A stretch of DNA of 64,000 bases. It comes from an uncultured Rickettsiales bacterium (lineage in GTDB: Bacteria > Pseudomonadota > Alphaproteobacteria > Rickettsiales > UBA1997). The stretch is from assembly GCA_944391075.1 (NCBI GenBank), contig CALXSG010000001.1:6381-70380 (forward strand), given 5' to 3'. Both the position numbers and the translations under genes were made by a program. The notes beneath the pieces were generated by a model, which was given only the letters and a program-made list of their open reading frames with translations, had not been told where the DNA came from and searched no databases. Numbering within the stretch: position 1 is the stretch's first letter; each line of letters opens with the position of its first letter. Of this stretch, positions 13,551-54,127 are shown one piece after another.

Positions 13551-13552
13551 CA

Positions 13553-20769: not shown

Positions 20770-22110
20770 ATGATAAAAGTATCTTTGATTGCAAAAACGG
20801 ACGAAATACCGTTAAATCTTGTAAGCCATGCTGCAAAAACATGTTATACTTCAAAAGTTCCTGAAATGGGAAAATTAATAGATGTTGAAAATAATTTATT
20901 TAAAACAGGACATCATACGACATTTCAACATAATTATTTTACATTTAACATAGATGGTTTGTCTATTTCATCAGCAACATTTGGTTTACATCTTACTCAT
21001 GCTTTTTATAATACAGATCAAAGATCAGGTAGATTTTCTAAAATGTATTCCAACCCTGATTATGAAGAAATTAAAAACTATATTATAAAATATTGGGGTG
21101 ATAAAAATATTGATGATGTTTTAAATTTTATTCAAAAAGGCATAACAATATATCAAGAAAATATTGAAAAAGCTACTGAAATAGCAGGAAATTTTATAAA
21201 AGAAGAAAGGCCATTTGCCAATGAAGAATATATTGCATTAAATGCACCTAAAATAGCACAAGAACAGATGAGAATGTTTATATCAACAATTTCTCCAACA
21301 GGACTTGATTATACATTAAATTTATCAGCAATTGCTGCAATGTATAGGTCTGCTTGGAATCCAGAGCTTAGAGATATAATGAATCAAATAAAAGAATTAG
21401 TTTTAGCTACTTATCCTGATTTAACTTATGTTTTTGGTGAAGATAAAGAAAGAGAAGATAATTGGACACCACAAATGCATTTTGACAAAATAGGTGTTAA
21501 AACACAACCTACTTGTGAAGTATTAGATATAGATTTAGATGAAAATATCAATTTAAATCTTAATATGAAAGATAGTGTTGATTTAAGATATTTTACGCCG
21601 GAAAATATGAATAATAATATTTCAACCATAAAAACAAGAGTTGAATTATCAATTGCTACAATGGGACAAGATCAAAGACATAGAGCTATAAAGAGAAGTA
21701 CGCCAGAACTAACAGGAAATTTTTATTTACCCCCTATTTTAGCTGAAATGGGTTTACAAGATGTTGCATTAGCATTCATGCAAGATTATACTAACCTTGC
21801 TAATAAAATTGATAAAACATTATTATTAGCAATAGCACCTTATGGAGTTATGGTAACATACAAAAAACTTAGTGATTTAAATGGTTTAATGCATGAACAA
21901 GAAAAAAGATTATGTTGGTCCGCACAAGAGGAAATTTATCATGCAAGTAAAGCATTATATGATTACTTAATTCAACATAATTATAAAGATTTAGCTGATA
22001 AGTTAACTCCTGCGTGTTATAAAAAAGGTTGTATTGAAGGAAGAAGATATTGCGGAAGAGATATTAAAAAAGTTAAAACAGACAAGAGTATACCTGAAAG
22101 AAAAATATAG
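20770..22110 (+). CDS. Divergent, unusually long ThyX-like (flavin-dependent thymidylate synthase family) protein
   Basis: FKTGHHTTFQHNYFTFNIDGLSIS resembles the ThyX H.S..EH..ftF.i.g.SR block. MGQDQRHRAIKRS contains RHR but without the canonical RHRx7S spacing. At 446 aa it is longer than typical ThyX. Confidence 0.45.
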   Translation: MIKVSLIAKTDEIPLNLVSHAAKTCYTSKVPEMGKLIDVENNLFKTGHHTTFQHNYFTFNIDGLSISSATFGLHLTHAFYNTDQRSGRFSKMYSNPDYEEIKNYIIKYWGDKNIDDVLNFIQKGITIYQENIEKATEIAGNFIKEERPFANEEYIALNAPKIAQEQMRMFISTISPTGLDYTLNLSAIAAMYRSAWNPELRDIMNQIKELVLATYPDLTYVFGEDKEREDNWTPQMHFDKIGVKTQPTCEVLDIDLDENINLNLNMKDSVDLRYFTPENMNNNISTIKTRVELSIATMGQDQRHRAIKRSTPELTGNFYLPPILAEMGLQDVALAFMQDYTNLANKIDKTLLLAIAPYGVMVTYKKLSDLNGLMHEQEKRLCWSAQEEIYHASKALYDYLIQHNYKDLADKLTPACYKKGCIEGRRYCGRDIKKVKTDKSIPERKI

Positions 22111-37600: not shown

Positions 37601-38997
37601 AATATTTGTCCGGGTTTGGCTGGTAATGGTTTAACTGGTACACCGCGCATTAATCTCTTGATTACAGTAACCAACATTAAATCTGTGTCAACATTATTAC
37701 TTGATAAATTATATATACCATAGTAGTCCTGTAAATCATACCGTGTAGAATAAATTGTATTTGCTAAATTATTACCATTAGAAATTGAATCTCTTTTTAT
37801 TGCCAATATTTCCGTTGATGTTTGTGACGGAAATGGCCTATAAAAATATGATAAAAAATTATCGGGTTCATCATTATTTGTCGCATCCTGGTTTATTGCA
37901 CCACATAAAGGATTTAAATTATTTTGTAATAAAGCACAATCCACTGTTTGTTGGCAAAAACCAGCTACACATCTCTGAGGATTTACTAAATAATTTTTTA
38001 CAATATTATTTATTGTAGCATTATTCCCTATTGTTGTATTTTCAAAATTTTTATCAATTCCCGTATATGTATCGCACATACTATTTAGTACTGTATTACA
38101 TTCTAGTTGATTGCTACGTCTATAATTTTGACAATATATAGAACTACATGTAGATGTTAATACTGAATAATTATTACTACTATTTGATGATACAAATAGT
38201 TTTTCTATATATTTTTGTTGATAATTTTCACTTCTTATTATTTTATTATTATCATTCGTATCTCTATAACCAAAAAGCCAGAAATTTGTATAACATGTTA
38301 AGCTGTCACTAGATGACGGAGGGCATTGGTGTATCATGCATTGAAAAAGATCATTGCCTGCTCGATCTTTTAAGCCACGAATATTTGGAATTAAATAATC
38401 AAGATCTTGTTCAGCAAATTCATGACAATACGTATATTCATCTGTAATTATACCTACACTCATAGAATTTCCTAATGAATTTCTAACAGATTTATTCTTA
38501 TATTTGTAGGGATTGCAAAAATTATATTTTATATTATCGATTCCATATGTTTGTAAGTATATAGTTTCCAATTCTTCATTTGTCAAGTCAAGACAACTTT
38601 TTTTATAACAATTTACAACTGGATTACCATTACTATCATAGCCTGGTGTTGGAAAATATAATTTTCTATCACCATTTTCATCGATATATGTATCGGAACA
38701 ATATCTTACTTTAAGACAAGTTGGGTACAAGCCATTAAACGCTTCTGGTAAATTATCTGATGGATAAGTAACCCAAGCTGCTCCAACCGTAGATTCACCT
38801 ATATCACCACAATATGGCAAATATATTATATTATCAACATGTTCTTCTGGTAAAAAATTTTGAGTTAGTATATACCTTGTTTGATCTCCATAAGTTGTTG
38901 GAGACTTTCCATAAGAAAAATAAGGTATAAAGAACAAAAACAAAGTTATTATTGCTAACTTCTCACGAAATAAAATAAAAACTTTATTTTTTATCAT
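31621..38997 (-). CDS. Giant (2458 aa) secreted, cysteine-rich protein with Sushi/CCP-like and EGF-like cysteine modules. Function unknown; probably a surface or host-interaction protein.
   Basis: Uninterrupted 7.4-kb ORF. GAGG sits 5 nt upstream of the ATG. Signal-like MIKNKVFILFREKLAIITLFLFFIPYFSYG. Cys occurs throughout. Repeated C..C..G.W..C-x-CP patterns, e.g. YRECLPDGTWGPVHNPCRLYNACPS. Confidence 0.9.
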   Translation of the reverse strand: MIKNKVFILFREKLAIITLFLFFIPYFSYGKSPTTYGDQTRYILTQNFLPEEHVDNIIYLPYCGDIGESTVGAAWVTYPSDNLPEAFNGLYPTCLKVRYCSDTYIDENGDRKLYFPTPGYDSNGNPVVNCYKKSCLDLTNEELETIYLQTYGIDNIKYNFCNPYKYKNKSVRNSLGNSMSVGIITDEYTYCHEFAEQDLDYLIPNIRGLKDRAGNDLFQCMIHQCPPSSSDSLTCYTNFWLFGYRDTNDNNKIIRSENYQQKYIEKLFVSSNSSNNYSVLTSTCSSIYCQNYRRSNQLECNTVLNSMCDTYTGIDKNFENTTIGNNATINNIVKNYLVNPQRCVAGFCQQTVDCALLQNNLNPLCGAINQDATNNDEPDNFLSYFYRPFPSQTSTEILAIKRDSISNGNNLANTIYSTRYDLQDYYGIYNLSSNNVDTDLMLVTVIKRLMRGVPVKPLPAKPGQILQATRNTAGLFHTKYIDLKFDNTNNSSYLKDYFNYIKNGIYTSNRDNICFANVNDFKTYGFRQAHSNRVHDLFWWNEGDYYFSRNNNAQDFITLYSNALSIPICENANNLSHSVQDNSGRSALCNIEVDHTNLTPRTDGYYIKGTPIFNWSTNKAEIESVEVEVCLRVSSYYKDTKLCGARECVITCADNDCNTMKQVCGIDKCVTLKWNREGPDCTMDAVEADMNNAETDPNKKLTCYKVVTENGKNNKVRFRINKINGKLYVFVDASKSSGGDTDFMKSVLSESKITLNSSGDIFNNQNYSITEYKGKLVGENLLDDNNLKNWVDENQDGINTNYEYITDEDVFGEELHNIFQCGENDAIKNPICTEMSIGSKYASNDKWIVWDIVQYIGNNQPQYVINEDGQKINNPNCRVGYLQNCRGYYDAQGNFFKESQGIPLPLAASPNKFYKYATTLNSQNLFLPLLKIYSAYVYDTTTNNLINKTLTDTQEDQSLEVDFFKPTMTVIFEYVQDTNTIPFDKTEISRTISDSQKKYEIEYILRKTTEKGSEIVPKVCLIRPLGFDANKNPVESVIMCIKRKKPDLNSILISMGKDTNSFKPYLNVYFIDNDKIDKTKNINLNGSNSIQFKNVSSNAPTDKEEKLKLPPNSKAEAHTYPITVEASYCSELHYDCINYKKQLIIEKRKLETINKDESPEALTEYNAITANITQLTNKVSRCENTVKTYCDNITSGIYSLKTIRGYNGDKIYNIGNQKRANIAHIYHSNYVKIRMCLINNNCSNELKNIINTYNQEVKAGHVIYNVENNIPVNYNTIGAENNLCIVSGFDTYFPNVIAIKSTGTTLGKCILNTESKKNPNCRRTHYYTYCTDNNDPNCICLNGTAECNCAYGNVCVKKNSCECSDVDGATNSCTNLPEECYLPGTNGYKILLKDGNQINTVCSCEYAADTTIVTTGKEIRKATPTELGLCAEATTIPICQPIKYYDSNKNYSDGGIGEKLSVIQEKYKSNIWRTNETKEDKIKNDSMGHAEFDMSRPYIEDSFNIESLYCHNPNTGHYYILDETSDSCQDGYVEIYATEGECKGFWKNKTVLSNDGTYDTINPLATCTLNANFILANNTNCERYSCPAVNENDSNYVKSEEKYTLNTNEINSTNANKKGLSHGYANWAEYKKGTYSIDGIPLNNGIENGHGDDIEQRTAESCIYGYVPAGFSKIINKYYPVKIDNSASDGVLYFDKFVKNMLLENQDYISASDMIINLNYNAKDHLPVRYCNQVGQWMPVDDIYTKYKINLYNLNSAPFHDLDSDGYVKIDTYKNMLYPNIETNTYGVSVDYSKKYCERSFCKAISANDVPLFLYDEHNTEVNLAGNEADPTSPFSRFLGLDDDYNVGYFANEDTINVYTVWRHTGGATWQETPGPLSDNDIRNVIGSCDASKHFYPHNAIFLQNSFTNMDNQKISYSSFEKQYNNLFSATNISISSIIKPELKKFFENTTLIQHPTRRCNKYGVWGAIENECEKACEPLDPFRTNFTYEGSGNNLKVTVLGLYKTPHLRNDYYKEIDANTKVGDIYTGGARWGRTLAGQYAIGECDSTIKTNMQVYNANGQLVNSNQNITFISNGSKNDVIPGTTIKIAGRPYRECLPDGTWGPVHNPCRLYNACPSLNVYNADLSQYSSAVAKREIVGSLNSSSILSEDIFNNTNSVRVTSECDKRYYEEGGTISKNCIIQTQQWDSNSLNNSCILKVCPSYNKKIGNVEIINIDSSRELYYPKNSGYSGEITLNNRSYKGYSVNRFCPNLFECIDCEDTSTVKYTCVYDENTNDLIWESTGRCEPRSCSFNALVSKCNQLGSCLPRQETLSVTDLTFIPQDNSFSDIVFENNKKYNDDKSKFAIGSRVALLPKTNYKNNMETYAYCNERGEWNIVGGFEPITCSMNNLEKLEGARWEKEYSTSCNNTHSNAVCHGTIEKVVCDSPTTTVGTRTAKCVVINNVAEWQYTGSVQCVK

Positions 38998-40522: not shown

Positions 40523-41188
40523 TTAATTTTCAGCGGAAATAATAAATACTAATGATAATACCGAAAATATATAAGCTTGAATTATACTACTTATAAAGGT
40601 AAGTATACTTAAAAATATTGGAAAACCAAGAGCTAAAAAAGCTATTTGAGAAACAACAGCTGTAATAATCATGCCACTCATCATATTTCCATATAACCTA
40701 ATTGCTAATGCACAATTACTAGAAATATCACTAATTATATTCATAACAAGCATAACTGGTGTTGGTTTTAAATATTTTTTTAAATAACCTAAAACACCAA
40801 CTTGTCTAATACCATATATAAGTCCCAAAGAAACTGTGACAATTACAATAGCAATATTTGTTGATAATGAAGCTGTTGGCGAATAAAAATAAGGAATTAA
40901 TTGTAATAAATTTGCACCCAATATAAATAAAAACATAGTTGCAATAAAAGGAAATACAAAATTTATATCAACTTTTCCCATCTTTTCAACTTGATCTTTT
41001 ATACCATAAATCAGTATTTCAAAAAAGTTTTGTAATTTACCAATATTTTTTTCATGAGTTAAAGCTAATCTTAAAATTATTGCAACTGTAATAACAAAAG
41101 CCATCAATATCCAAGTGAATAGAATTGTATTATTTATCTTGAAAAAGCCATTTTGCCATACAATTATTTGATCTGGTGTAATATTCAT
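40523..41188 (-). CDS. atpB: F/N-type ATP synthase subunit a
   Basis: LAIRLYGNMMSGMII contains the essential stator Arg motif. The protein is polytopic. I place the start at MNITPDQ (ATG 41188-41186), which forms an ATGA overlap with the stop of the upstream small ORF. The track ORF extends to 41275. Confidence 0.88.
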   Translation of the reverse strand: MNITPDQIIVWQNGFFKINNTILFTWILMAFVITVAIILRLALTHEKNIGKLQNFFEILIYGIKDQVEKMGKVDINFVFPFIATMFLFILGANLLQLIPYFYSPTASLSTNIAIVIVTVSLGLIYGIRQVGVLGYLKKYLKPTPVMLVMNIISDISSNCALAIRLYGNMMSGMIITAVVSQIAFLALGFPIFLSILTFISSIIQAYIFSVLSLVFIISAEN

Positions 41189-41451
41189 TTTTTTGTCCTT
41201 TGAATTTTTGCTAAAATTATAAAAAATACTTTCGCAACAGTAAAACCAATCAGCATTAAAATAGCATTTTGCCACTTTTTATCTAAAAATACATATACTA
41301 TTGTTGCAATAATGAATAATCTAATGAGTAAACTTGATATAGCAACTGCTACACTTTTTTTCTCCAATATTTTTTTAATAGTCCACTTTAATGCTAAAGA
41401 ATTTAATATTCCAATCATTAAACCAATAAAAATTAAAAAAATACTATACAT
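41185..41451 (-). CDS. Small ATP-synthase-associated membrane protein, AtpR-like (N-ATPase) or AtpI-like
   Basis: 88 aa with 3 hydrophobic helices and an Arg inside a helix (SSLLIRLFIIATIV). It is translationally coupled (ATGA) to atpB. Confidence 0.55.
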   Translation of the reverse strand: MYSIFLIFIGLMIGILNSLALKWTIKKILEKKSVAVAISSLLIRLFIIATIVYVFLDKKWQNAILMLIGFTVAKVFFIILAKIQRTKK

Positions 41452-41582
41452 TAAAAAATATTATAAATAAAAATCTACCGACATTTTAAAACATTGTTAG
41501 CTAATAGTCAAGATAAAATATTATTATTGACAAACTAAGTATTGTAAAATAAAATATTATATTATGCAAGAAATACAATATT

Positions 41583-42350
41583 ATGACTAAAATAGTTTTT
41601 TGGGATTATGATGGAACCCTTGTAGATACAGAGACTGCTTATAAAAATTCATTAATTTATTTTTTAAATGAAAAAAATTTAGCTTTAAAACCACTTGACG
41701 ATAATTTTTTTTATAAGTTTATTTCTGGAAATCATCCAGAAGGTTTTTTAAACGAAATGGAAAAACAAGGTTATATAGCTAATGCAAATGATATTAGTTC
41801 TGATGATATTAGAATATATTATGATAAATATTTTGCTAGTCTAAAAAAAGGTGATGTTAAAGTTATAGATAATGTTGACAATATTATTGGAGAAATTGCA
41901 AAACAAAAAGATATTTTTATGTGTATTACAACTTCTTCTTACCCAAAAGGTTTTGAAATCAAAAATAGTAAAGTGAATAGTCCTATTTTAGATTCTATTT
42001 TTAAATTAGATAACAATATTTACTTATGCGGAGCTATAAGTGATTGTAAATTTAAACCTAGTCCTGATATATATTTTTATGCATTTAATAATATAATAAA
42101 AAGAAATAATTTACAACCAATGGAAAATGATACATTATTTATTGTAGAAGATTCAAAAACTGGTTGCATAGCAAGTAATAATTTTAAAAATACTATTGAT
42201 AGCAAAATTAATGTTAAAATAATTGGTTATACAGCCGGCATGCAATATGAACCATATAAACAAGAATATATTAATAAACTAATTGATGCAGGTACTGATT
42301 TAATAGCGAATACATCAAAAGATTTATTAAAATTTATAATTAATCAATAG
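41583..42350 (+). CDS. HAD-superfamily hydrolase
   Basis: IVFWDYDGTLVDTE (DxDGT motif I), ITTSS (motif II) and VEDSKTG (motif IV-like). Confidence 0.8.
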   Translation: MTKIVFWDYDGTLVDTETAYKNSLIYFLNEKNLALKPLDDNFFYKFISGNHPEGFLNEMEKQGYIANANDISSDDIRIYYDKYFASLKKGDVKVIDNVDNIIGEIAKQKDIFMCITTSSYPKGFEIKNSKVNSPILDSIFKLDNNIYLCGAISDCKFKPSPDIYFYAFNNIIKRNNLQPMENDTLFIVEDSKTGCIASNNFKNTIDSKINVKIIGYTAGMQYEPYKQEYINKLIDAGTDLIANTSKDLLKFIINQ

Positions 42351-42851
42351 TTTAACAGAATGTAAATTATCTTTAAAATAATTGTGAATTTTAATTCTTT
42401 GTATGTCATATTCAAAATTTATTCTCCATTTAGGGGCTAATTCATAACTTACACCAGCACCATATAATAACATAAAATCTAATTTATCTTTTGTGTTATT
42501 TATGTTGTTGAAATTATATTTTGTAAAAGAAGCACCGATATTTCCATAAACAGCTAATTTATATGTAATATTATAGCCGATATTATAACTTGCGCCATAT
42601 CTATATTTTACATTAAGATAATTATTATTAAAATTATTTTCTATATTTAAAAAATCATAAAATATTTCCGTACCTAAAATAAATCTATTAGAATTCCATA
42701 AAATTTTATAAGAAAAATTAAAATTTAAATTATTTTCTAATTCTTTAACTTTTGATTGTCCTATTCCTAAACCAATAGAACTACCTAATGTTAAAGCATA
42801 AGTATTTTGTGTAATAAAAAACAAAAATATAAGATTTAATGACTTTTTCAT
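42327..42851 (-). CDS. Small outer-membrane beta-barrel protein
   Basis: Signal peptide MKKSLNLIFLFFITQNTYA, alternating aromatic/polar beta-strand pattern, and a C-terminal ..LLINYKF (terminal Phe). Confidence 0.7.
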   Translation of the reverse strand: MKKSLNLIFLFFITQNTYALTLGSSIGLGIGQSKVKELENNLNFNFSYKILWNSNRFILGTEIFYDFLNIENNFNNNYLNVKYRYGASYNIGYNITYKLAVYGNIGASFTKYNFNNINNTKDKLDFMLLYGAGVSYELAPKWRINFEYDIQRIKIHNYFKDNLHSVKLLINYKF

Positions 42852-42944
42852 TAAGTTTCTTATTAAAGTTTACTTATCTTTAAAATATCTTGAAAAAATA
42901 TATTGTCAATTGTATATTCTTTTTAATACATAATCAAAAACAAT

Positions 42945-43901
42945 ATGATAAATAAAAAGATATTTTTTATATGTTTACTTTTTGTAAATAATTTATTTGC
43001 TACTGTTAGAATTGCTGTGCCATATGATTTAGAGACTACTGAATTAAATAAAGAACAAAGAGATAAACTTCAAAATATTAAGAATCAAGAATCTATTAGC
43101 ATGCCTGAACAATATAAAGGCCCATTAAAATATACAGAAGGTGAAGAAGAAGTTAAATTAAGAGATGTTGCCCTATCTTTAGGTATTGGGGGTAGATATA
43201 CATTTATAAATGATATAGAATTAACATCAAATTTAGATTTAACAGGTAGTGCTACTTATTTTAACAAAATTAATAAGTGGAAAATGAAAAATAATTTTAA
43301 TTTTTTTGCTTCAGCTGGTTTATATTGGAGAAATGGTTTTAGAATTGAATTAGAATATTCAGAAATGACTATTGATACAGCAAATTATGGAGAAGATTTT
43401 GCAAGATATAATAGTGGTTTAGGTGCTGGTATTATTTTTAATCAATATTTACAACATGCAGCTATAATATCAAACTATGATGGCATAACTAGACTATCTA
43501 ATAATATGTTACCAGTAGCCGAATTGTCATTAAAAACATATATGTTAAATTTTATATTTGAAAAAACAAAAGTTAATTCTAAAGTAAGGCCATACTTAGG
43601 TTTTGGTTTTGGTATGGTTAATGGTGATTTTTCAAGTCTTGTAAATGAAGGTGGTTCAAAAGTATTTGGTGCGCAAGCTATGGTTGGTTTATCGTATGTT
43701 ATTTCTCCTGAACAAGTGGTTGCTTATTTAGGTTATAGAATATTATATATGAAAGAGATGGAACAAACTTTTACAAGACTTATTGGTGCAAATAATTTTG
43801 ATGGAAATGTATATTATGATCCTGTATTTAAACAATCTACTGAGACATATCAAGTTCCAATTTTACATAATATAGATTTAGGTTTTAAATTCTTCTTTTA
43901 A
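42945..43901 (+). CDS. Outer-membrane beta-barrel protein (porin/surface-antigen like)
   Basis: Signal peptide, beta-strand periodicity (GLYWRNGFRIELEYSEM, PYLGFGFGMVNGDF), and a C-terminal DLGFKFFF. Confidence 0.7.
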   Translation: MINKKIFFICLLFVNNLFATVRIAVPYDLETTELNKEQRDKLQNIKNQESISMPEQYKGPLKYTEGEEEVKLRDVALSLGIGGRYTFINDIELTSNLDLTGSATYFNKINKWKMKNNFNFFASAGLYWRNGFRIELEYSEMTIDTANYGEDFARYNSGLGAGIIFNQYLQHAAIISNYDGITRLSNNMLPVAELSLKTYMLNFIFEKTKVNSKVRPYLGFGFGMVNGDFSSLVNEGGSKVFGAQAMVGLSYVISPEQVVAYLGYRILYMKEMEQTFTRLIGANNFDGNVYYDPVFKQSTETYQVPILHNIDLGFKFFF

Positions 43902-46271: not shown

Positions 46272-48638
46272 ATGAAAAAAATATTTATTTTATTATTAGT
46301 ATTATTAAATTCAAATAATCTTTTTGCATCGTCTAAAATTAATAAAATAGCAATTGAAAGAGTCGAGGCTGTTTCAACAGTTGAAATTGATTACAATAAT
46401 TTAAATAAACAATTAAGCGAAATAGAGCAAAAATTATTAAAAAGAGATATAACAGTTGAAGATACTAACAATTATATTAAAATTTTAAATAATATAGAAA
46501 ATTTAATTAATGAAGCTAAAAAAGAAAATGAAACAAATTTAAGTTATGTACAAAAAAGAATAGAATCATTAGGCGAAAAACCAGAAGATAATGTAGTAGA
46601 AGATCAAACTGTTGTTAATCAAAGAAAAGAATTTTTAGTTGAAGAAAATTTGATAAAAACAAAAATTGCAAAAAATGATTTAATTTTAACTAAATTAAAT
46701 GAGCTAGAAGAATTAATTTTAAATTTTAGAAATCAAACATTATTAGATAATATACTTAATAGGCAAAGTGAAGTAGTTAAGCCTAAATTTATATTAGAAA
46801 ATACAAAAAATTTTGCAGGTTTTGTATTTGATATTTTAAGAATGCCTTATAAGTGGTATAGCAAGCTTGATAAAGTACAAAAAGCTGAAATGAATGGTAG
46901 TCTATTAAGTATATCGTTAATGACTTTTTTCTTCTCTATTTTAGCCTGTATAGGAAGTATATTTATCAAAAAATATTATGGTTATAAAAAAAATATATCT
47001 ACACCTGATTATATTAAAAAGATAAAAACTGCAATTATAGTATTTTTTACCAATTTACTTATATATTCAACTATAATAGGCACACTATTATTATTTATAA
47101 TCAAAAACCAATTATTAGTAGATACAAATATCAAAATAATTTTTTCAAAATTACTAATATATATATTTTATATATTTTTATTGTCTTTTACAGCAAAAGC
47201 TATTTTTGTGCCTTGTAGTGCAAAATGGAGATTAATTAATATTAGTAATGAAAAAGCAAAATCTATTACTTTTATTTCAATATTATCAATTGCAATAATT
47301 TTTATTTTTAATTTTTTTGAATATGCAACTGTTACACTTGAATATCCAATTAATGTTGCTATTTATATAAAAGTTTTATCTTGTTTAGCAAAAATTATTT
47401 GTATAATGCTAATTGCAAAAGTATTTTTCTATGAAACAGAAGAAAAAGAAGAAAATGCAGAAAATATAGAAGATAAAGGTTTAGATAATAAGGCGAAAAT
47501 AAAAATAGGTTTATTCTTATTTGCAACAGCTTTATTTTTTATATGTTTTTTTGGTTATGTAAATCTAGCTTATTATATATTAGATAAATCTATTATTTCT
47601 ATAACACTTTCTGGAATAGCTTATATTATTAGCAATTTAGTAAATGTATTATTTCATAAAATATTATTATTAAGATTCTGGGCTAGAAGTTTAAAATTAA
47701 CAAAAAGACAATTGGTAAGAATTAATATATGGTTTTCTTTAATTATTAATCCACTAATTTTAGTAATTTTAATATTTATTTTACTAGGTTTATGGGGTTT
47801 TTCAACTGATTTATTATTACAAAATATAAAAAGATTCTTAAATGGCTTTTATATTGGTAATGTTAAAATATCTATTATTTCAATTTGTTTTGCTATACTT
47901 GCATTTTTTATATCTATATCAATTTTTAGACTCATAAAATTCAAGTTATTAATTCCTACACTTTCTAAAACTGATATGGATGCAGGCGTTAGAGATTCTT
48001 TAGCATCTGGCTTTACATTCTTCGGCTTTTTAGCTTCTGTATTTTTTTCTATAGCAATAATTGGAGGAAATTTTAGTAATTTAGCTATAGTCGCCGGTGC
48101 TTTATCGTTCGGTGTAGGTTTAGGTTTACAAAATATTGTTAATAATCTTGTATCTGGTATTTTAATATTATTTGAAAGACCAATTAAAATTGGTGATGTA
48201 GTTAATATAGGTGGACAAGAAGGAACAGTAAAACAAATAAATATTAGATCTACACAATTAGAAACTTTTACTAAATCAAATATTATTATTCCTAATTCAA
48301 ATATTATTTCCGAAATAGTTTTAAATAAAACATTAAACAATAAACAAGCAAGAGTTGATTTAAACTTTGTTGTAGATTCTTCTAATGATCCAAAGGAAAT
48401 GATTGATATATTATTAAATATTGCCAAAAATAATGATAGAGTTATGACAAAACCTGCTCCTTCTGTAGCTTTTAATAGTTTCACTAGAAACAGTTTAGAC
48501 TTTACATTAAAAATATATATTAATGATTTAAATAATCAACAAGATATAGTTAATGAAGTATTAATTGCAGCATTCTATAAATTCAATGAGAAGAATATTG
48601 AATTGAAGAAAGATATAATGTATTTAGAACGCACTTAA
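46272..48638 (+). CDS. Large MscK/KefA-like mechanosensitive channel (MscS family)
   Basis: Signal peptide, a periplasmic coiled-coil region, multiple TMs, and the MscS core LAIVAGALSFGVGLGLQNIVNNLVSGILILFERPIKIGDVV. Confidence 0.88.
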   Translation: MKKIFILLLVLLNSNNLFASSKINKIAIERVEAVSTVEIDYNNLNKQLSEIEQKLLKRDITVEDTNNYIKILNNIENLINEAKKENETNLSYVQKRIESLGEKPEDNVVEDQTVVNQRKEFLVEENLIKTKIAKNDLILTKLNELEELILNFRNQTLLDNILNRQSEVVKPKFILENTKNFAGFVFDILRMPYKWYSKLDKVQKAEMNGSLLSISLMTFFFSILACIGSIFIKKYYGYKKNISTPDYIKKIKTAIIVFFTNLLIYSTIIGTLLLFIIKNQLLVDTNIKIIFSKLLIYIFYIFLLSFTAKAIFVPCSAKWRLINISNEKAKSITFISILSIAIIFIFNFFEYATVTLEYPINVAIYIKVLSCLAKIICIMLIAKVFFYETEEKEENAENIEDKGLDNKAKIKIGLFLFATALFFICFFGYVNLAYYILDKSIISITLSGIAYIISNLVNVLFHKILLLRFWARSLKLTKRQLVRINIWFSLIINPLILVILIFILLGLWGFSTDLLLQNIKRFLNGFYIGNVKISIISICFAILAFFISISIFRLIKFKLLIPTLSKTDMDAGVRDSLASGFTFFGFLASVFFSIAIIGGNFSNLAIVAGALSFGVGLGLQNIVNNLVSGILILFERPIKIGDVVNIGGQEGTVKQINIRSTQLETFTKSNIIIPNSNIISEIVLNKTLNNKQARVDLNFVVDSSNDPKEMIDILLNIAKNNDRVMTKPAPSVAFNSFTRNSLDFTLKIYINDLNNQQDIVNEVLIAAFYKFNEKNIELKKDIMYLERT

Positions 48639-48698
48639 TCTTTAAAATTCTCTACAAAAGAGAACTATAATAAAGAATTTTGTTTTAATTAGTACATA

Positions 48699-49601
48699 TT
48701 ATTTATTTTTCTTCTTTTTCTTAGCTACACTATAACCTGTAACAACATCTAACAATTCATTGGTAATTGTACTTTGTCGTTTTTGATTATATTCTAAGTT
48801 CTTAGTTCTAATTAAATCGTTAATATTATTTTCAGCATTTTGTAATGTTAATAATCTATTTTTTTGTTCACTTGCTATTGAATTTACTAATGCATCATTT
48901 AAACCAACAAATATATATTGTTTTAATAAATCAACAACTAACGTTTTTGTATCTATTTGCCAATAAGGAATATTATTTGTGGGCCATACTTTTTTTTGTG
49001 CATTCTCTAATATTTTTTTATCTATTGGTATTAATCTAGTTTTTGTAAGTGTACCATTCATCGTGTCATCATTAGCTGTATAATATAAAAATACTTTATT
49101 AATGGTTTTTTCTTCAATTTCTTTCTCTATTACAGCTAATAATTCATAAATTGTATTTGAAATATTTTCAATAGAATTAGGAACTGGTATTGTTTTAAAT
49201 ATTTTTAATTTTGTATTACTTAGCAACATACTAAGTCTCTCACCAACAACAATTACTTTATTTTCATCAGTATTTTGTATATCATCTATGGTAAAATTAG
49301 CTATTTTATCATTAAATCTTCCACATAAACCTTGATTAGAACCGAAAACAACAACTAAATTTTTAGCTTTTTTATTTTTAGATTGTCCTATAAATTCTAA
49401 TTCATTTATATTGATTTTATCGTTATGCATCATAATAGCTTGTAAAGCCAACTCCACATTACTTTTATATGTATAAAGAATCTTAACTATTTTTTCATAT
49501 TTTTTAATATTAGCACCGGACAAAGCCTTCATAGTACTAACAACTTGTTTAATACTTTTTGAGGTGTCCAGTGTCTTTTTTAAATTATCTAATGTTTCCA
49601 T
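48699..49601 (-). CDS. atpG: ATP synthase gamma subunit
   Basis: SIKQVVSTMKALSGANIKKYEK (gamma N-terminal helix) and C-terminal QKRQSTITNELLDVVTGYSV. Lies directly downstream of atpA. Confidence 0.88.
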   Translation of the reverse strand: METLDNLKKTLDTSKSIKQVVSTMKALSGANIKKYEKIVKILYTYKSNVELALQAIMMHNDKININELEFIGQSKNKKAKNLVVVFGSNQGLCGRFNDKIANFTIDDIQNTDENKVIVVGERLSMLLSNTKLKIFKTIPVPNSIENISNTIYELLAVIEKEIEEKTINKVFLYYTANDDTMNGTLTKTRLIPIDKKILENAQKKVWPTNNIPYWQIDTKTLVVDLLKQYIFVGLNDALVNSIASEQKNRLLTLQNAENNINDLIRTKNLEYNQKRQSTITNELLDVVTGYSVAKKKKKNK

Positions 49602-49606
49602 AGCTA

Positions 49607-51127
49607 TTATTCAACATTTTTATATTTTTTAACTGTTTCAGTAGCTTTTGATATAAAATTCTTTATTTGATCTTCTGATAATTTTTCATTAGATCTTATA
49701 GTTTTTACCATATCAACAAAATCTTCTTCCATTAAAGCTACAACTTCATCTTGAACTTCTTGAATTTTACTTAATTCTATTCCATCAAATATACCATTAT
49801 TTATACATATAAATAAAGCAACTTGTCCTTCCGTGGATACTGTTTGAGATTTAGGTTGTTTTAAGATTTCTCTAATTAATTTTCCTTTATCTATTGTTCT
49901 TTGTGTTTCTTCATCTAATTTAGTAGCAAATCTTGAAAACATTTCTAATTCTTCAAATTGCGAATATTCAATACCAATTTTTCCAGCAACTTGTTTAAAT
50001 GCTTTTAACTGTGCTTTGCCACCAACCCTTGATACTGATTTTCCAGCATCAATTGCAGGTAATAAACCTTTTTGAAAATTAACAGGTGATAAATATAATT
50101 GTCCATCTGTAATAGAAATAACATTGGTTGGTATATATGCAGAAATGTTTTCACCTTCTGTTTCAATAATAGGTAAACTTGTAATATTTCCACCACCTAA
50201 TTCATCTTTTAAATTTGCACTTCTTTCCAATAATCTAGAATGTAAATAGAATACATCGCCAGGGTAAGCTTCTCTACCTGGTGATTTTTCTAATAAAAGT
50301 GAAATTTCTCTGTAAGCTTTTGCATGTTTAGATAAATCATCATAAACTATTAAAACAGATTCACCTTTTTCACAAAAATATTCAGCCATTGATGTTGCAG
50401 CATATGGAGCAATATATTGCATACCAGGCATACTTGTTGCATTAGCATTAACAACTATTGTATAATCCATTGCTTCATTAACCTGTAATGTATGAATAAC
50501 ATTCATAACGGCAGAATCTCTTTGTCCAATAGCACAATAAATACAAATAACATCTTTTCCTTTTTGATGTAAAATTGTGTCAAGAGCTATTGACGTTTTA
50601 CCTGTTTGTCTATCACCAAGTATTAATTCTCTTTGTCCTCTTCCAATAGGAATTAGACAATCAACAATTTTAATACCAGTTTCAAGTGGTGTATCAACAG
50701 TTTTTCTATCTAACACACTTTTTGAAGGTCTTTCAGCTGGTAAAAAATCTTTTGTTTTTATTTGTCCTTTATTATCCAAAGGTCTTCCTAAACCATCAAC
50801 AACTCTTCCTATTAATTCTCTGCCCACAGGTATTTGTAGGTATTTATTTGTTCTTTTAACTTCATCTCCAACTTTAATATCGGTTGTTTTATCTAACAAA
50901 ACAACTTTTATAATATTATCTTCCATGCCAGCTACAAAACCAATATATTTATCATTTATAATGACACCTTCATCAAAACCAACTTTTGTTAAACCTTCTA
51001 CTTTAATAATAGAATCTTCAACACTATGAACAGTGCCAGCTTCTTTCTCAACTAATTGTGAATTAATTTCACCTAAATTACTAAGAATTTTTTCTTTAAA
51101 GTTGATAGATAAATTTTTATTTTCCAT
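49607..51127 (-). CDS. atpA: ATP synthase alpha subunit
   Basis: GDRQTGKTSIALDTI (Walker A), VLIVYDDLSKHAKAYREISLLL and GSITSLPIIET-like NITSLPIIETEG. Confidence 0.95.
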   Translation of the reverse strand: MENKNLSINFKEKILSNLGEINSQLVEKEAGTVHSVEDSIIKVEGLTKVGFDEGVIINDKYIGFVAGMEDNIIKVVLLDKTTDIKVGDEVKRTNKYLQIPVGRELIGRVVDGLGRPLDNKGQIKTKDFLPAERPSKSVLDRKTVDTPLETGIKIVDCLIPIGRGQRELILGDRQTGKTSIALDTILHQKGKDVICIYCAIGQRDSAVMNVIHTLQVNEAMDYTIVVNANATSMPGMQYIAPYAATSMAEYFCEKGESVLIVYDDLSKHAKAYREISLLLEKSPGREAYPGDVFYLHSRLLERSANLKDELGGGNITSLPIIETEGENISAYIPTNVISITDGQLYLSPVNFQKGLLPAIDAGKSVSRVGGKAQLKAFKQVAGKIGIEYSQFEELEMFSRFATKLDEETQRTIDKGKLIREILKQPKSQTVSTEGQVALFICINNGIFDGIELSKIQEVQDEVVALMEEDFVDMVKTIRSNEKLSEDQIKNFISKATETVKKYKNVE

Positions 51128-51135
51128 ATAATAAC

Positions 51136-51882
51136 CTACTTTTTATCATTGATTTTATTATCTATGTTAGATATAAAGTTTGTTGTTAATTCTTTTACGT
51201 TCCAAGATAAAATATAACTTTTTGCTTTTAACTCAATTCCTAAAATTAAATCTTTATCAATATCACATTGAATATCTTTAAATTTAAAACCTTTTTCAAC
51301 AAGAGAATCTTTAATAAAATTCTTTTGTTTTGTGGTTAATTCATCATTAGAATATATATGTATATTATCAAGATTTAATTTATTTACAGAATCTACTTTA
51401 TCAGCAGTCAATTCGTTAACTTTTTCTATGAAATTATTAACTATTTCATCTTGAAGTGTTGAATTAGCAAGAACTTGAAGAATATTATTAGAATATTCAA
51501 CAAATAAGTCTGATAAATCTTCATTGAAATTTTCTACAAGATTTTTTTGTTCTAAATCTAAATAGTCATTAAATTTATCTTTTTTTGCAGAAATATCATC
51601 TTTCGCTTTTTGTAATTCTTCTTCTTTAAATTTTTTAATATCAGCAATAGCTTTTTTTCTAAGAACAATATTTTCTTTTTCAACTTCTTGTAATTTATTA
51701 AAATATTCTTCTTTAAGTTTTTCACTTTCTTCAAGTTTTTTTTCGGTTTCTTCAATTTTATTTTTAATATCTTCTCTTCTCTTTTCCATAGTTTTTAATA
51801 CAGGTTTATATAAAAACTTATTTAAAAGAAAAATTAGGACACCAAAATTTATAAATTGGGCAATTATTGTATATAATTCCAT
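51136..51882 (-). CDS. atpF: ATP synthase subunit b with a delta/OSCP-like C-terminal extension (b-delta fusion)
   Basis: N-terminal anchor plus FLYKPVLKTMEKRREDI and a long charged helix typical of b. The C-terminal DIDKDLILGIELKAKSYILSWNVKELTTNF resembles the delta C-terminus (vD..LiGG..i..gd..iD.S....L). Length 248 aa. Confidence 0.8.
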   Translation of the reverse strand: MELYTIIAQFINFGVLIFLLNKFLYKPVLKTMEKRREDIKNKIEETEKKLEESEKLKEEYFNKLQEVEKENIVLRKKAIADIKKFKEEELQKAKDDISAKKDKFNDYLDLEQKNLVENFNEDLSDLFVEYSNNILQVLANSTLQDEIVNNFIEKVNELTADKVDSVNKLNLDNIHIYSNDELTTKQKNFIKDSLVEKGFKFKDIQCDIDKDLILGIELKAKSYILSWNVKELTTNFISNIDNKINDKK

Positions 51883-51897
51883 AATTTTACCTTAAAA

Positions 51898-52170
51898 TTA
51901 TAATTTTTCTAATAAAGTATTCCAGAAAGGATTAGCAAATAAAAGAATCATAGAAATAACAAGACAATAAATAGCTGTTGATTCAACCATAGCCATACTC
52001 ATAAACAAAAGTTTTGTAATATTGCCGGCTTCATCTGGTTGTTGAGTAATAGAATGCACAGCTTCTCTAGCTATACTAGCTTCACCAAATGAAGAACCAA
52101 GAGAACCCATACCCATTGAAAATGCAGCTGAAAAAATTGAAATTGATGCTACAATTGTTAAACTATCCAT
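51898..52170 (-). CDS. atpE: ATP synthase c subunit with a Na+-binding-type signature
   Basis: 90-aa hairpin. Loop motif QQPD. E30 in helix 1. E63-S64-T65...Y68 in helix 2 (AMVESTAIYCLV). Spacing relative to the loop Pro matches the Ilyobacter tartaricus Q32/E65/S66/T67/Y70 positions. Confidence 0.9.
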   Translation of the reverse strand: MDSLTIVASISIFSAAFSMGMGSLGSSFGEASIAREAVHSITQQPDEAGNITKLLFMSMAMVESTAIYCLVISMILLFANPFWNTLLEKL

Positions 52171-52333
52171 ATTTTTTATATTAGTTATTAAATTTAGTTT
52201 GCATTTTATATTGTGAGAAACAATAAGTCAATAAATATTTTTTATTTTATAAATTTTATATATTAAAATTTTGACTTGAAATTAATAAAAAATGTTCTAT
52301 TAGTAGTAGAGTATAATAATTTTTATTTATAAT

Positions 52334-53473
52334 ATGAAGATTAAAGATATATTATATTTTTCAATATTTTGTCTATTATCTTTGATAATACTAATAGTTA
52401 CAAACACAAAAGCTAATGCCACAGATTTATATAATAATTCTGAATATACCTATGTAAATTTTAATGATTTTATGAGTTCTTATAATGCAAATGTAACTAA
52501 TTTAGTATCAGGAACTTATGACGATAAAATTGTTGATATTACAGGTAATACAACTGCTGTTTATTTAAATCCACCTGAAAAATATGCATCTTTCGTACAA
52601 TTTAGAAATAGCAAGAGAAGTGTTGATACGTACAATAAGATGTTTTTATTAAGATGGTTTAAGTTAGCTAACACTCAAACAGACGATGCAACTGAAAATA
52701 CAGTACAAGGCATATTGGCTGATGGAAATTTCGACGCACTTTATAGATCTTATTTGTTTTCTTCAAAAGGAAAAACATTTTATATAATTACTCAAAGAGC
52801 ACTAGGTGATTTAATGGAAAAAGACATAAAAAATGGTGAATCCATTAAAATTTATTATTGGAATTTAGGTCAATATCAAGGAAATGATCCTATTTTAGTT
52901 ATTGTTGGTTATGAAAAAGGAAAGATTACAAAACAAATAGAAACAGATATATTTTTTAGAGAATATTTACCATATTTAAAAAATGACATTTTAAATGGCA
53001 AATATGATAAAGCTAAAGGTAATATCGAAATGTTATTAAAACAATATCCTAATAATATGGACTTAAAATTAAGTTTGTGTTTAATTTATAAAGAAACAAA
53101 CTTCTATGCTAAGTCAATAGCTTGTTATAGTGATTTAATTAAACAAGATTCTCAAAATTATGATGCTTATTACGGTTTAGCTTCTGCACTTTATAAAGAT
53201 CCAAGTAAAGTTTTAAAAGATAAAGCTAGAACAATAATGACTAACACAACAAAAGCATTAGATATAATTGAAGGAATGCCAGACAATAATTCTGGAAGTT
53301 TAGCATTAATTAAATATAAAAGCTATTTCCTACGAGCAATGGCTAAAATTTCATTAGGTGATAAGAGTGCTATTAATGATTTAGAAAAAATTAATCAAGA
53401 ACAACCAGTTATTATAAGTAATGAAAGTTTAAAATTATACAAACAACAATTAAATATGATTTTAAGTCGTTAA
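52334..53473 (+). CDS. Exported TPR-repeat protein
   Basis: Signal-like LYFSIFCLLSLIILIVTNTKANA. The C-terminal half has TPR-like helices (AKGNIEMLLKQYPNNMDLKLSLCLIYKETNFYAKSIACYSDLIKQDSQNYDAYYGLASALY). Confidence 0.65.
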   Translation: MKIKDILYFSIFCLLSLIILIVTNTKANATDLYNNSEYTYVNFNDFMSSYNANVTNLVSGTYDDKIVDITGNTTAVYLNPPEKYASFVQFRNSKRSVDTYNKMFLLRWFKLANTQTDDATENTVQGILADGNFDALYRSYLFSSKGKTFYIITQRALGDLMEKDIKNGESIKIYYWNLGQYQGNDPILVIVGYEKGKITKQIETDIFFREYLPYLKNDILNGKYDKAKGNIEMLLKQYPNNMDLKLSLCLIYKETNFYAKSIACYSDLIKQDSQNYDAYYGLASALYKDPSKVLKDKARTIMTNTTKALDIIEGMPDNNSGSLALIKYKSYFLRAMAKISLGDKSAINDLEKINQEQPVIISNESLKLYKQQLNMILSR

Positions 53474-53533: not shown

Positions 53534-54127
53534 ATGTCTTTTTTAGAAATAAGGTTTCCAGAATCAATAGCTTTTAATTCTTCTTCAATATTAGAATTCA
53601 ATACAACAATTATAAAATCTAAAAATGGTTATGAACAAAGAAATATTAATTGGAATACAAATAAAATGAAATTTAATATTATTAATGGTATTAAAACAAA
53701 AGCCGAATTAGATGAAGTAATAACATTTTTTAGAAATGTCAGGGGGGCTGGTTATGGTTTTAGATTTAAAGATTGGACTGATTATCAAATAGATAATCAA
53801 TATTTAGGTCTAGGTGATGGAGTAACAAAAGAATTTCAATTAATAAAATCTTATAGAGTCAGTGATAATATTGTTTATTATAGAAAAATCACAAAACCTG
53901 TTATATCAACTGTAAGAGTTTTTATTAATGATATAGAAAGTAAAGATTTTAATATTGATTTAACTACTGGTTTAATTACTTTAAATACAGTACCAGAAAT
54001 AGATAGTATTATAAAAGCAAATTTTGAATTTGATGTTCCTGTACGTTTTGAAAATGATATAATGGAAATTACTATGAACTCTATTAATAGTGGAAATATT
54101 AAAGATATTACTTTAATTGAAATATAA
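53534..54127 (+). CDS. DUF2460 / GTA ORFg12-like phage-derived protein
   Basis: FLEIRFPESIAFNSSSILEFNTTIIKSKNGYEQRNINWNTNKMKFNI...FFRNVRGAGYGFRFKDWTDY matches my recollection of the DUF2460 block (F.EvrFP..is.gs.GGP.f.T.iv...sG.E.Rn..w...r..ydv....r....l..l..FF.ar.Gr..gFRfkD..D). Confidence 0.75.
   Translation: MSFLEIRFPESIAFNSSSILEFNTTIIKSKNGYEQRNINWNTNKMKFNIINGIKTKAELDEVITFFRNVRGAGYGFRFKDWTDYQIDNQYLGLGDGVTKEFQLIKSYRVSDNIVYYRKITKPVISTVRVFINDIESKDFNIDLTTGLITLNTVPEIDSIIKANFEFDVPVRFENDIMEITMNSINSGNIKDITLIEI

Follow-up and report, generated by a model that had tools for sequence, protein, structure and literature searches.

The question raised by this locus was whether four consecutive genes for rotary ATPase subunits c, b, alpha and gamma belong to an N-ATPase or to a broken canonical F-type operon. 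The window, meaning the whole 64-kb stretch of DNA that was analysed, comes from an uncultured bacterium with about 25% GC that is labelled Rickettsiales in public MAG records. The initial annotation had read a c-b-alpha-gamma order on the minus strand followed by a convergent gene, and the ORF coordinates and Pfam matches agreed on this layout (Table 1). The gaps between atpE, atpF, atpA and atpG were 15, 8 and 5 nt. Because the TPR gene upstream is divergent, the cluster begins at atpE, as it does at loci L008-L011 as well. The public assembly collection lists a protein identical to AtpA in 25 blocks.

Table 1. Positions of the ATPase genes, their neighbours and candidate regulatory sites in the 64-kb window
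Feature	Position	Strand	Evidence or remark
atpE, N-type c subunit, 90 aa	51898..52170	minus	Pfam ATP-synt_C, E = 4e-14
atpF, long N-type b subunit, 248 aa	51136..51882	minus	Pfam ATP-synt_B, residues 5-134
atpA, N-type alpha subunit, 506 aa, P-loop GDRQTGKT	49607..51127	minus	Pfam ATP-synt_ab(+C), E = 1e-79
atpG, N-type gamma subunit, 300 aa	48699..49601	minus	Pfam ATP-synt, E = 3e-49
MscK/MscS-family channel gene	46272..48638	plus	convergent, next gene downstream of atpG
TPR protein gene	52334..53473	plus	divergent, upstream of atpE
atpR, N-ATPase-specific small membrane subunit, 88 aa	41185..41451	minus	Pfam AtpR PF12966
atpB, N-type a subunit, 221 aa, motif AIRLYGNM	40523..41188	minus	Pfam ATP-synt_A, E = 3e-36
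Promoter-like TTGACT-17 nt-TAAAAT	52203..52231	minus	ends 32 nt before atpE start; consensus match only
Promoter-like TTGACT-17 nt-TAAAAT	41483..41511	minus	ends 31 nt before atpR start; consensus match only
Weak hairpin TTCTCT-TTTGT-AGAGAA + TTTT	48644..48664	minus	between convergent atpG and mscK; read by eye

The canonical alphaproteobacterial F-type reference was atpHAGDC plus atpIBEFF', in which atpH stands before atpA and atpD-atpC follow atpG. The cluster departs from this order at both ends, with atpF directly before atpA and the convergent mscK after atpG. No OSCP/delta gene was found in the cluster or elsewhere in the window from the ORF list and Pfam, and tblastn with alpha, beta and epsilon queries revealed no second alpha/beta paralogue, no beta and no epsilon in the 64 kb. 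Both atpD and atpC, whose whereabouts the initial annotation had asked for, were located outside the window as separate units, in agreement with its statement that beta and epsilon are encoded elsewhere; the lack of a separate delta in the cluster agrees with it too.

The b subunit consists of an N-terminal transmembrane helix, a coiled coil and a delta/OSCP-like C-terminal domain of about 100 aa. Residues 112-225 gave a weak match to the delta model, and a C-terminal profile built from eight clade members matched both OSCP (6yny_G1, E = 1e-5) and the P. denitrificans delta subunit (5dn6_H, E = 1.7e-4). The lack of atpH together with an unusually long AtpF, whose C-terminus can be aligned with delta, is a hallmark of N-ATPases (PMC2881411). 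The delta-like domain of b would stand in for the separate delta subunit.

In profile HMM comparisons, c, b, alpha, gamma, a and beta each scored higher on the N-type model than on any other named family model. The c subunit scored 113 bits on alt_F1F0_F0_C (NCBIfam) against 46-75 on F-type c models, and b scored 123 bits on NCBIfam alt_F1F0_F0_B and 139 on PRK14474, compared with at most 60 on ordinary b models and 50 on TIGR01144, where the cut-off is 65.5. The corresponding scores were 675 bits (NCBIfam alt_F1F0_F1_al) against 609 (atpA, TIGR00962) for alpha, 236 (NCBIfam alt_F1F0_F1_gam) against 121 (ATPsyn_F1gamma, cut-off 194) for gamma, 204 (NCBIfam altF1_A) against 101 (TIGR01131, cut-off 102.6) for the a subunit, and 689 (N-type model) against 626 (TIGR01039) for beta. 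Two PRK-numbered 'F0F1' models came marginally above the N-type models for c and b. All N-type scores were under the curated NCBI cut-offs, for example 675 against 750 for alpha and 236 against 282 for gamma, and the lineage was therefore regarded as a divergent family member. Alpha and beta exceeded the generic F-type cut-offs (609 against 484 on TIGR00962; 626 against 463 on TIGR01039), with the N-type models ahead of the F-type ones by 63-66 bits. The closest beta homologues outside Rickettsiales also scored best on the N-type model, two of them above its curated cut-off. The N-type classification was accordingly drawn from how the models rank against each other, from gene order in relatives and from hallmark features.

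One such feature is atpR (urf2), the 'tell-tale' gene of N-ATPases, which is located directly upstream of atpB (PMC2881411). The AtpR of the window scored 38.7 bits on Pfam PF12966, for which the gathering score is 26, and the same family is annotated for it on the public contig; on TIGR03165 ('Methanosarcina type subunit 2') it reached 30 bits (E = 5e-7), below the cut-off of 55. Arg44 sits in TM2, and the second conserved arginine is a lysine in the window and an arginine in L013, L014 and L016. The protein is 100% identical between the window and L008. The start codon of atpB overlaps the stop codon of atpR (ATGA), and to judge from this reading frame overlap the two genes are translationally coupled. 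The pair lies on the same strand, 7.4 kb from atpG, and it is not contiguous with atpE because five unrelated genes intervene. The AtpR-like gene that the initial annotation had mentioned before atpB was thus present, but the pair does not adjoin atpE.

Helix 1 of subunit c contributes Glu30 to the ion site and helix 2 contributes Glu63-Ser64-Thr65-x-x-Tyr68; the c subunits of relatives keep the glutamate plus E-[ST]-[ST]-x-x-Y. When c was aligned to 3zk1 and other c-rings, E30 and ESTxxY fell at corresponding positions of the F. nucleatum chain 3zk1 (GIGEG...AESTGIY). The F. nucleatum c-ring has been described as a two-carboxylate motif. It belongs to a Na+-coupled ATP synthase (3zk1/3zk2) of the canonical F type, whereas the window enzyme is N-type. 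The ion-site residues are identical in the two c subunits, but the helix-1 packing motif differs, with Pro/Gly/Ile in the G-x-G-x-G of F. nucleatum and Ser/Phe there in the window c. A glutamate in helix 1 alongside a helix-2 ESTxxY Na+ motif is likewise a hallmark of N-ATPases (PMC2881411). Since c has the E30 and E63-S64-T65-Y68 site, the coupling ion was read as Na+, and the enzyme is probably Na+-coupled and sodium-pumping. The N-type c17 ring of B. pseudomallei also has Glu30 in helix 1 and its key glutamate in helix 2, but there the motif is E61-T62-M63-x-x-Y66 (ETMxxY) and the ring proved to be H+-selective despite earlier predictions (PMC5376962). Because the window c has the full E-S-T-x-x-Y, Na+ is predicted here, unlike in B. 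pseudomallei. That ring is the only biochemically characterised N-type c-ring among those cited, and B. pseudomallei carries a regular F-type operon in addition to its N-operon, atpDC-Q-R-BEFAG (PMC5376962).

The intact order atpD-C-(Q)-R-B-E-F-A-G was found in more distant Rickettsiales/alphaproteobacterial MAGs (L012, L013, L014 and L016), the last three of which have only AtpR between atpC and atpB. In the clade of the window, the genes form four units, namely atpD, atpC with a small membrane ORF, atpR-atpB, and atpEFAG, so that of the single-operon order atpD-C-Q-R-B-E-F-A-G only E-F-A-G is contiguous in the window. Since the relatives have the intact order, the split arrangement was taken to be derived. 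The beta subunits of the species complex form a cluster of 43 members (P0037), one of which (P0129) is encoded by a stand-alone atpD on a 217,160-bp ENA scaffold (ERZ28614011 scaffold_65). For P0141, an alpha variant that falls into the same 90% cluster as the window's alpha, the longest contig likewise measures 217,160 bp. The atpD gene could thus be assigned to the window species, and it probably lies on the same 217-kb scaffold as an atpA. In sister-species MAGs, atpD stands alone (CALXSC01), as do atpC and its small ORF (CALXSB01). The epsilon candidate, P0260, occurs in 34 blocks. At its loci L035/L036 the GC content is 25.5%, and the tetranucleotide composition lies at a distance of 0.007-0.0085 from that of the window, just as for the window's own alternative assemblies. 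From abundance pattern and composition, without a shared contig, P0260 is the probable epsilon of the window species. This link is less firm than the family identity, gene completeness, purifying selection and operon fragmentation, which the data establish. In the window clade, the small ORF overlapping atpC at its end encodes 87-88 aa with two transmembrane segments and shows 56% identity between species. It had no Pfam match and no BLASTP similarity to the ORF at the AtpQ position of L012; in the N-operon, atpQ (gene 1, PF09527) lies between atpC and atpR (PMC2881411).

We conclude that the c-b-alpha-gamma cluster forms, with good confidence, one of the transcription units encoding a complete N-type rotary ATPase, the 'alternate F1F0 ATPase' of Dibrova et al. 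(2010), whose ancestral nine-gene operon, atpD-C-Q-R-B-E-F-A-G, has split in four in the window clade. The assembled enzyme would consist of alpha3beta3-gamma-epsilon on a c-ring, held by the b subunit. The N-ATPases of Methanosarcina, Burkholderia, marine cyanobacteria and others have the same set of beta, epsilon, AtpR, a, c, long b, alpha and gamma, and have in common with the window the missing delta, the delta-like b C-terminus and the c glutamate with ESTxxY (PMC2881411). They differ in that their operon is 'highly conserved' and moved as one unit, whereas the window clade has four dispersed units; in having AtpQ, whereas none is recognisable in the window clade, which has its own small membrane ORF after atpC; and in their sporadic distribution (PMC2881411), whereas N-type inheritance in the window lineage, with its reduced genome, looks vertical within a deep clade. 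The proposal of an N-ATPase gene arrangement thus stood as regards N-type identity, but the arrangement is a four-way fragmentation of the conserved N-operon and not that operon itself.

The four genes are, on sequence grounds, real and selectively maintained. Compared with L008, a strain 95-99% identical to the window, dN/dS was 0.037 for atpE, 0.09 for atpF, 0.049 for atpA, 0.065 for atpG and 0.073 for atpB, values which show that the genes are functional. The ORFs were also intact in other species, including those with a gamma identity as low as 65%, and the split units themselves were conserved among species differing by 15-35% in protein sequence. These data bear on the idea of decay, in which a reducing genome would be losing an accessory N-ATPase operon and the cluster would be a remnant that makes no working enzyme. 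The broken operon, the unlinked beta and epsilon and the unrecognisable atpQ could all be expected from decay, and Methanosarcina acetivorans can do without its N-ATPase (PMC2881411). Decay is nevertheless very improbable, given that the species complex still has intact ORFs for each of the nine expected functions, a recognisable AtpQ excepted, that the catalytic motifs of alpha and beta are intact and the atpR-atpB coupling is retained, and that dN/dS is low (0.04-0.09) with the same split units kept across species. Even less credible is a canonical alphaproteobacterial F-type ATP synthase with merely fragmented operons and with atpH, atpD and atpC elsewhere. Such an enzyme would fit the alpha and beta scores above generic F-type equivalog cut-offs, when every N-type score stays under its own, and the NCBI name 'F0F1 ATP synthase subunit beta' of related Rickettsiales MAG proteins. 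Against it, the N-type models outscore the F-type ones in each of the seven scored subunits and gamma falls short of its F-type cut-off (121 against 194), atpR is present, b is a b-delta(C) fusion, c has the helix-1 glutamate and ESTxxY, orthologues in relatives lie in textbook atpDC(Q)RBEFAG operons, and the nearest beta homologues outside the clade fit the N-type model best, two above its cut-off. The canonical enzyme with atpH elsewhere, which the initial annotation had named as the outcome that would speak against it, is contradicted by the HMM scores, atpR, b, c and the operons of relatives. The same HMM scores, atpR, delta-like b C-terminus, c motif and intact operons in relatives support the N-ATPase-type enzyme proposed there, and every comparison made supports reading the genes as a piece of an N-type ATPase and not as a broken canonical alphaproteobacterial F-operon.

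A central question is whether a canonical F- or V-type enzyme accompanies this N-type one. PFOR is encoded in the window and NrdD at sister-lineage loci, and the organism is presumably anaerobic, fermentative or host-dependent. This may be the cell's principal rotary ATPase, or its only one; no F-type or V-type genes were seen in the 64-kb window or at other loci of the species (about 125 kb inspected). Well-studied Rickettsiales have a canonical F-type ATP synthase, and this fact together with the 125 kb of sequence covered leaves an even chance for an ordinary accessory N-ATPase, in which a canonical F- (or V/A-) type enzyme is encoded elsewhere in the genome and the window enzyme is a secondary Na+ (or H+) extrusion pump. 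The literature agrees with such a pairing, as N-ATPases 'always' or 'typically' accompany an F- or A-type enzyme (PMC2881411, PMC4154653, PMC10656485, PMC11738941). Against it stand the lack of F- and V-type genes in the 125 kb inspected and the seemingly vertical inheritance and strong constraint of the N-type genes throughout a deep clade whose genomes are small and AT-rich, a pattern unusual for a dispensable accessory system. There is also a precedent in the genus T78 (Chloroflexota), whose genomes have no rotary ATPase other than the N-type one according to the ProAD database paper (PMC11738941). We tentatively consider it possible, at somewhat below even chance, that this gut- or host-associated, apparently anaerobic Rickettsiales lineage lost its F-type enzyme and that its sole rotary ATPase is a Na+-coupled N-ATPase, inherited vertically and with a shattered operon. 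N-ATPases have been proposed to act as ATP-driven Na+ (or H+) pumps and not as ATP synthases (PMC2881411), and the window enzyme would putatively run mainly as an ATP-driven cation pump energising the membrane. T78 was the only published N-ATPase without an F/A partner in the literature searched; its enzyme is from another phylum and is predicted to be H+-coupled (PMC11738941), whereas that of the window is from Rickettsiales and is predicted to use Na+.

The window enzyme is a divergent addition to the known N-ATPase family with an unusual, dispersed organisation, and no description of an N-ATPase for Rickettsiales was found in the literature searched. N-ATPases have been described as horizontally mobile, single-operon and accessory, with a debated physiological role (PMC2881411); the window lineage differs in seemingly vertical inheritance, strong purifying selection and survival of a four-way operon dispersal. 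Since the enzyme survives this dispersal, its assembly does not require an intact operon, and the cell evidently depends on it. Scores under the N-type cut-offs and a broken gene order mean that automated annotation and gene-order databases are likely to call such an enzyme an ordinary F0F1 ATP synthase, so the distribution of N-ATPases may be under-counted. ProAD, for example, identifies N-type enzymes by single-cluster gene order (PMC11738941), and a dispersed set as in the window could therefore be labelled F-type. If the cell has no other rotary ATPase, its lineage would join T78 as the second known to be N-only and would be a tractable case for what N-ATPases do. Such a cell would break the rule that an N-ATPase is 'always the second enzyme', and an N-ATPase could be the primary membrane energiser, or even an ATP synthase.

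Candidate regulatory sites flank the units. The hairpin between atpG and mscK, which went unreported by the terminator scan because it has only 2 G-C pairs, is a possible terminator, proposed with low confidence. All four atp units have a TTGAC-type promoter-like site upstream, as consensus matches in an AT-rich genome, and the relaxed promoter pattern showed no enrichment over shuffles. In its exact form, TTGACT-N16-18-TAAAAT, the site lies at only two places in the 64 kb, before atpE and before atpR.

The four ORFs of the atpE-atpF-atpA-atpG cluster were recognized as ATP-synt_C, ATP-synt_B, ATP-synt_ab with its C-terminal domain, and the gamma family (Pfam, E = 4e-14 to 1e-79), and they are separated by gaps of 15, 8 and 5 nt. 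The ORF listing and the Pfam matches agreed with the initial annotation in coordinates, gene order and lengths. It had also reported that a separate delta was missing and that neither beta nor epsilon followed downstream. This was borne out, as atpG is followed by the convergent mscK gene, no delta/OSCP gene was found in the window, and tblastn with alpha, beta and epsilon queries revealed no second alpha/beta paralogue or epsilon across the 64 kb. The AtpR-like gene that had been placed before atpB exists, though the atpR-atpB pair lies 7.4 kb from atpG with five unrelated genes in between (mscK, pepF, a Surface_Ag_2 outer membrane protein [OMP], another OMP and a HAD hydrolase). Exact-protein look-ups found no atp genes within ~10 kb past the 3′ end or ~6 kb past the 5′ end of the window.

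Features of the window and of related loci (L027, atpD locus of the window species; L035, putative atpC locus of the window species; L030, atpC locus of E06__bin57)
Feature	Coordinates	Strand	Length	Remarks
Glycine-rich protein	199-2367	minus	722 aa	ALK_LTK_GRD-type domain; homologue at 12377-14827 of related contig L005
MscS-family channel	2935-4104	minus		
ThyX (Thy1) homologue	20770-22110	plus	446 aa	Pfam domain at residues 6-216 only, then long C-terminal extension
Pyruvate:ferredoxin oxidoreductase	25198-28707	plus	1169 aa	Identified by reading the translation, not by HMM
Large ORF	31621-38997	minus	2458 aa	No Pfam match at E <= 0.001
atpB	40523-41188	minus		After atpR
atpR	41185-41451	minus		AtpR-like gene
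Surface_Ag_2 and OMP genes	41583-43901			Flank atpR-atpB
mscK, MscK/MscS-type channel gene	46272-48638	plus	788 aa	MscK-like; downstream of atpG, convergent
atpE-atpF-atpA-atpG	52170-48699	minus	90, 248, 506, 300 aa	Four closely spaced ORFs
TPR protein gene	52334-53473	plus		Upstream of atpE, divergent
Gene-transfer-agent (GTA)/phage distal tail homologue	53534-54127	plus		DUF2460; TIGR02217 'Rcc01695 family', E = 1e-55
NMO/FabK-like gene	58331-59797	plus	488 aa	
NuoF/RnfC-like protein	60044-61069	plus	341 aa	Stand-alone; Complex1_51K FMN domain and 4Fe-4S region
Formate-THF ligase	L027 18679-20343			At window-species atpD locus
Two-TM ORF	L035 10393-10659; L030 10390-10653		87-88 aa	Overlaps atpC stop; no Pfam family

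The N-ATPase reading of the initial annotation was supported by several features. Relative HMM scores on the NCBIfam models, where the N-type scores all fell under NCBI's curated cut-offs, were higher for the N-type than for the F-type in each subunit: 113 vs at most 75 bits for c, 123 (PRK14474: 139) vs at most 60 for b, 675 vs 609 for alpha, and 236 vs 121 for gamma, the latter value falling short of the 194 required by the F-type gamma model. For a, altF1_A gave 204 bits and the generic model 101, and the beta of the window species reached 689 bits with the N-type model vs 626 with the atpD model. That all N-type scores were below the curated cut-offs indicated a divergent lineage, and the plain name 'F0F1 ATP synthase', under which related MAG proteins appeared among the hits, is consistent with this. 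Among the closest beta homologues beyond the Rickettsiales radiation (Atribacterota, Desulfobulbaceae and others), the N-type model gave the top score, in two cases above the curated cut-off. AtpR reached 38.7 bits in Pfam (gathering score 26), and atpR and atpB are translationally coupled by an ATGA overlap. A profile of the last ~120 residues of b from eight clade members, searched against PDB sequences, matched the C-terminal domains of OSCP (6yny_G1, E = 1e-5) and of the Paracoccus delta (5dn6_H, E = 1.7e-4). The predicted ion site of c combines Glu30 of helix 1 with a helix-2 motif, Glu63-Ser64-Thr65-x-x-Tyr68, and these residues match the aligned F. nucleatum c-ring (chain 3zk1) position by position. 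Together with the operons of relatives, the scores, AtpR, the long delta-like b and this ion site support the assignment of the window enzyme as a new, divergent member of the known N-ATPase family, the hallmark features of which have been defined (PMC2881411).

The textbook order atpD-atpC-(atpQ)-atpR-atpB-atpE-atpF-atpA-atpG was found in four loci of more distant relatives (L012, L013, L014 and L016), whereas in the window's own clade (L008-L011) the cluster starts at atpE. The initial annotation had proposed that beta and epsilon are encoded elsewhere, and a beta and a probable epsilon were located. To find beta, the N-type beta of L012 was used as query and cluster members were inspected. 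A 43-member beta cluster matched the window's 52-member AtpA cluster in source and contig statistics, and one of the beta variants, P0129, lies on a 217,160-bp ENA scaffold (ERZ28614011 scaffold_65). Since P0141, an alpha variant from the window's own cluster, shares the largest-contig size of P0129, both are most probably on this scaffold. Four candidates chosen on cluster size (P0038, P0037, P0057 and P0046) came from other lineages, and the amino-acid composition of the beta matches did not discriminate between species. On scaffold_65, atpD stands alone, with a divergent nitroreductase gene on one side, an opposite-strand 81-aa ORF on the other, and no atpC after it. In the sister species E20__bin249, atpD is also alone, beside HAD, Surface_Ag_2 and OMP genes. 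The Surface_Ag_2 and OMP genes flanking atpR-atpB in the window have homologues (53% and 37% identical) near the sister-lineage atpD (L020 12262-14718 and L024 3950-5648). A HAD-family hydrolase is present at both places, but the two HAD genes do not match each other. The shared Surface_Ag_2/OMP neighbors suggest in situ breakage of the ancestral operon followed by rearrangement, and these flanking genes may be a trace of how it broke.

A first epsilon profile, built from relatives with intact operons, found only two divergent sequences from the window clade (P0196 and P0198) and none from the window species. A second, clade-specific profile was thus built from these two. In E06__bin57, epsilon is a lone 130-aa gene whose 3′ end is overlapped by an 87-aa ORF with two transmembrane segments (TM). 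The same pair, atpC with an 88-aa ORF, was seen in an abundant epsilon cluster with variants on 28-32 contigs each (NCBI, Logan and ENA). Two loci of this cluster, L035 and L036, had a GC content of 25.5% and lay at a tetranucleotide distance of 0.007-0.0085 from the window. This distance equals that of the window's own alternative assemblies and is clearly smaller than that of the sister-species loci. Based on its abundance and this window-like composition, the cluster was taken, with moderate confidence, to encode epsilon in the window species, which would place atpC at a locus separate from the stand-alone atpD. F-type-looking epsilon matches (PF00401) were Firmicutes-like sequences on short contigs and were uninformative on an F-type enzyme in the window organism. 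The operon is fragmented four ways, which is unusual, in a reduced Rickettsiales-type genome.

The two-TM ORF is 56% identical between species, and neither Pfam nor BLASTP linked it to AtpQ. It may have taken the place of AtpQ in this clade specifically, or be an AtpQ that has diverged extremely. In L013, L014 and L016, with N-ATPase operons that are otherwise intact, AtpR is the single small ORF between atpC and atpB, so AtpQ appears absent there. Evidently, members of this radiation can do without AtpQ or replace it.

The atp genes bear signs of function. Compared with L008, a strain at 95-99% identity, dN/dS was 0.037 for atpE, 0.091 for atpF, 0.049 for atpA, 0.065 for atpG and 0.073 for atpB, and atpR was identical. 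The atp ORFs were unbroken across species whose gamma identity fell as low as 65%. Alpha and beta both retain their P-loops, beta has its catalytic GERSREG, and subunit a has its essential Arg (AIRLYGNM). At the level of the genes, the analysis showed what appears to be a complete and selectively maintained N-type rotary ATPase set spread over four loci. The 64 kb contain just two exact matches to the pattern TTGACT-N16-18-TAAAAT, one ahead of atpE and one ahead of atpR, each ~30 nt from the start codon, and promoter-like sites precede atpD (TTGACT-17-TATTAT) and atpC (TTGACA-17-AAAAAT). These TTGAC-type sites are consensus matches only, a relaxed pattern showing no enrichment over shuffles, and they are consistent with four independent transcription units. 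A terminator scan found no terminator after atpG, where visual inspection alone shows a weak hairpin.

In the public assembly collection, an identical AtpA protein appears in 25 blocks (contigs of 20-200 kb), and the window has a GC content of ~25%. Relatives, given here with their gamma identity, were the GTDB species representative 'uncultured Rickettsiales bacterium BRZ_AG__bin83' (CALXVQ01, 95%) and the sister species E20__bin249 (CALXSC01, 78%), E06__bin57 (CALXSB01, 69%) and STC_2 (JAQTXT01, 65%). Farther MAGs labelled Rickettsiales or Alphaproteobacteria, one of them from mouse gut, were at 38-47%. Pyruvate:ferredoxin oxidoreductase in the window, the anaerobic ribonucleotide reductase NrdD and formate-THF ligase in sister-lineage loci (L021/L024), and formate-THF ligase also at the window-species atpD locus suggest an anaerobic lifestyle. 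These anaerobe-type markers are unusual for a Rickettsiales-labelled bacterium.

By analogy with established F- and N-type enzymes, alpha3beta3 with gamma-epsilon would turn the c-ring against subunit a, and the delta-like C-terminus of b would anchor the stator to alpha. The N-type ring of B. pseudomallei has ETMxxY and is H+-selective (PMC5376962), whereas c in the window has the full E/ESTxxY set, from which we infer Na+ as the coupling ion. An anaerobe that obtains ATP otherwise, by synthesis or import, would most likely use the enzyme hydrolytically, to set up a sodium-motive force that drives transport.

N-ATPases are described as 'always' or 'typically' second enzymes (PMC2881411, PMC4154653, PMC10656485, PMC11738941), and the sole case of N-only genomes found was the Chloroflexota genus T78 (PMC11738941). 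No F- or V-type genes were seen in ~125 kb of the window species, a minor part of the genome. The ProAD database identifies N-type enzymes via single-cluster gene order (PMC11738941), so dispersed sets could be filed as F-type. The literature searched contained no description of an N-ATPase in Rickettsiales, and nothing on the window lineage was found under the sample and assembly accessions, in the termite and rumen protist symbiont literature or in the ProAD supplement.

Several other features of the window were recorded. The length of the glycine-rich protein varies by strain (722 or 816 aa), and the public collection has no record of the exact 722-aa form, the first ORF. Besides the 2458-aa ORF, a 3118-aa ORF without Pfam matches lies just past the 5′ end of the window (related contig L005). 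The DUF2460 gene is isolated between the TPR protein gene and ychF, with no other phage or GTA genes nearby. The NuoF/RnfC-like gene adjoins the NMO/FabK-like gene, outside any nuo or rnf operon. Two MscS-family mechanosensitive channels in 64 kb represent a high density for a small genome.
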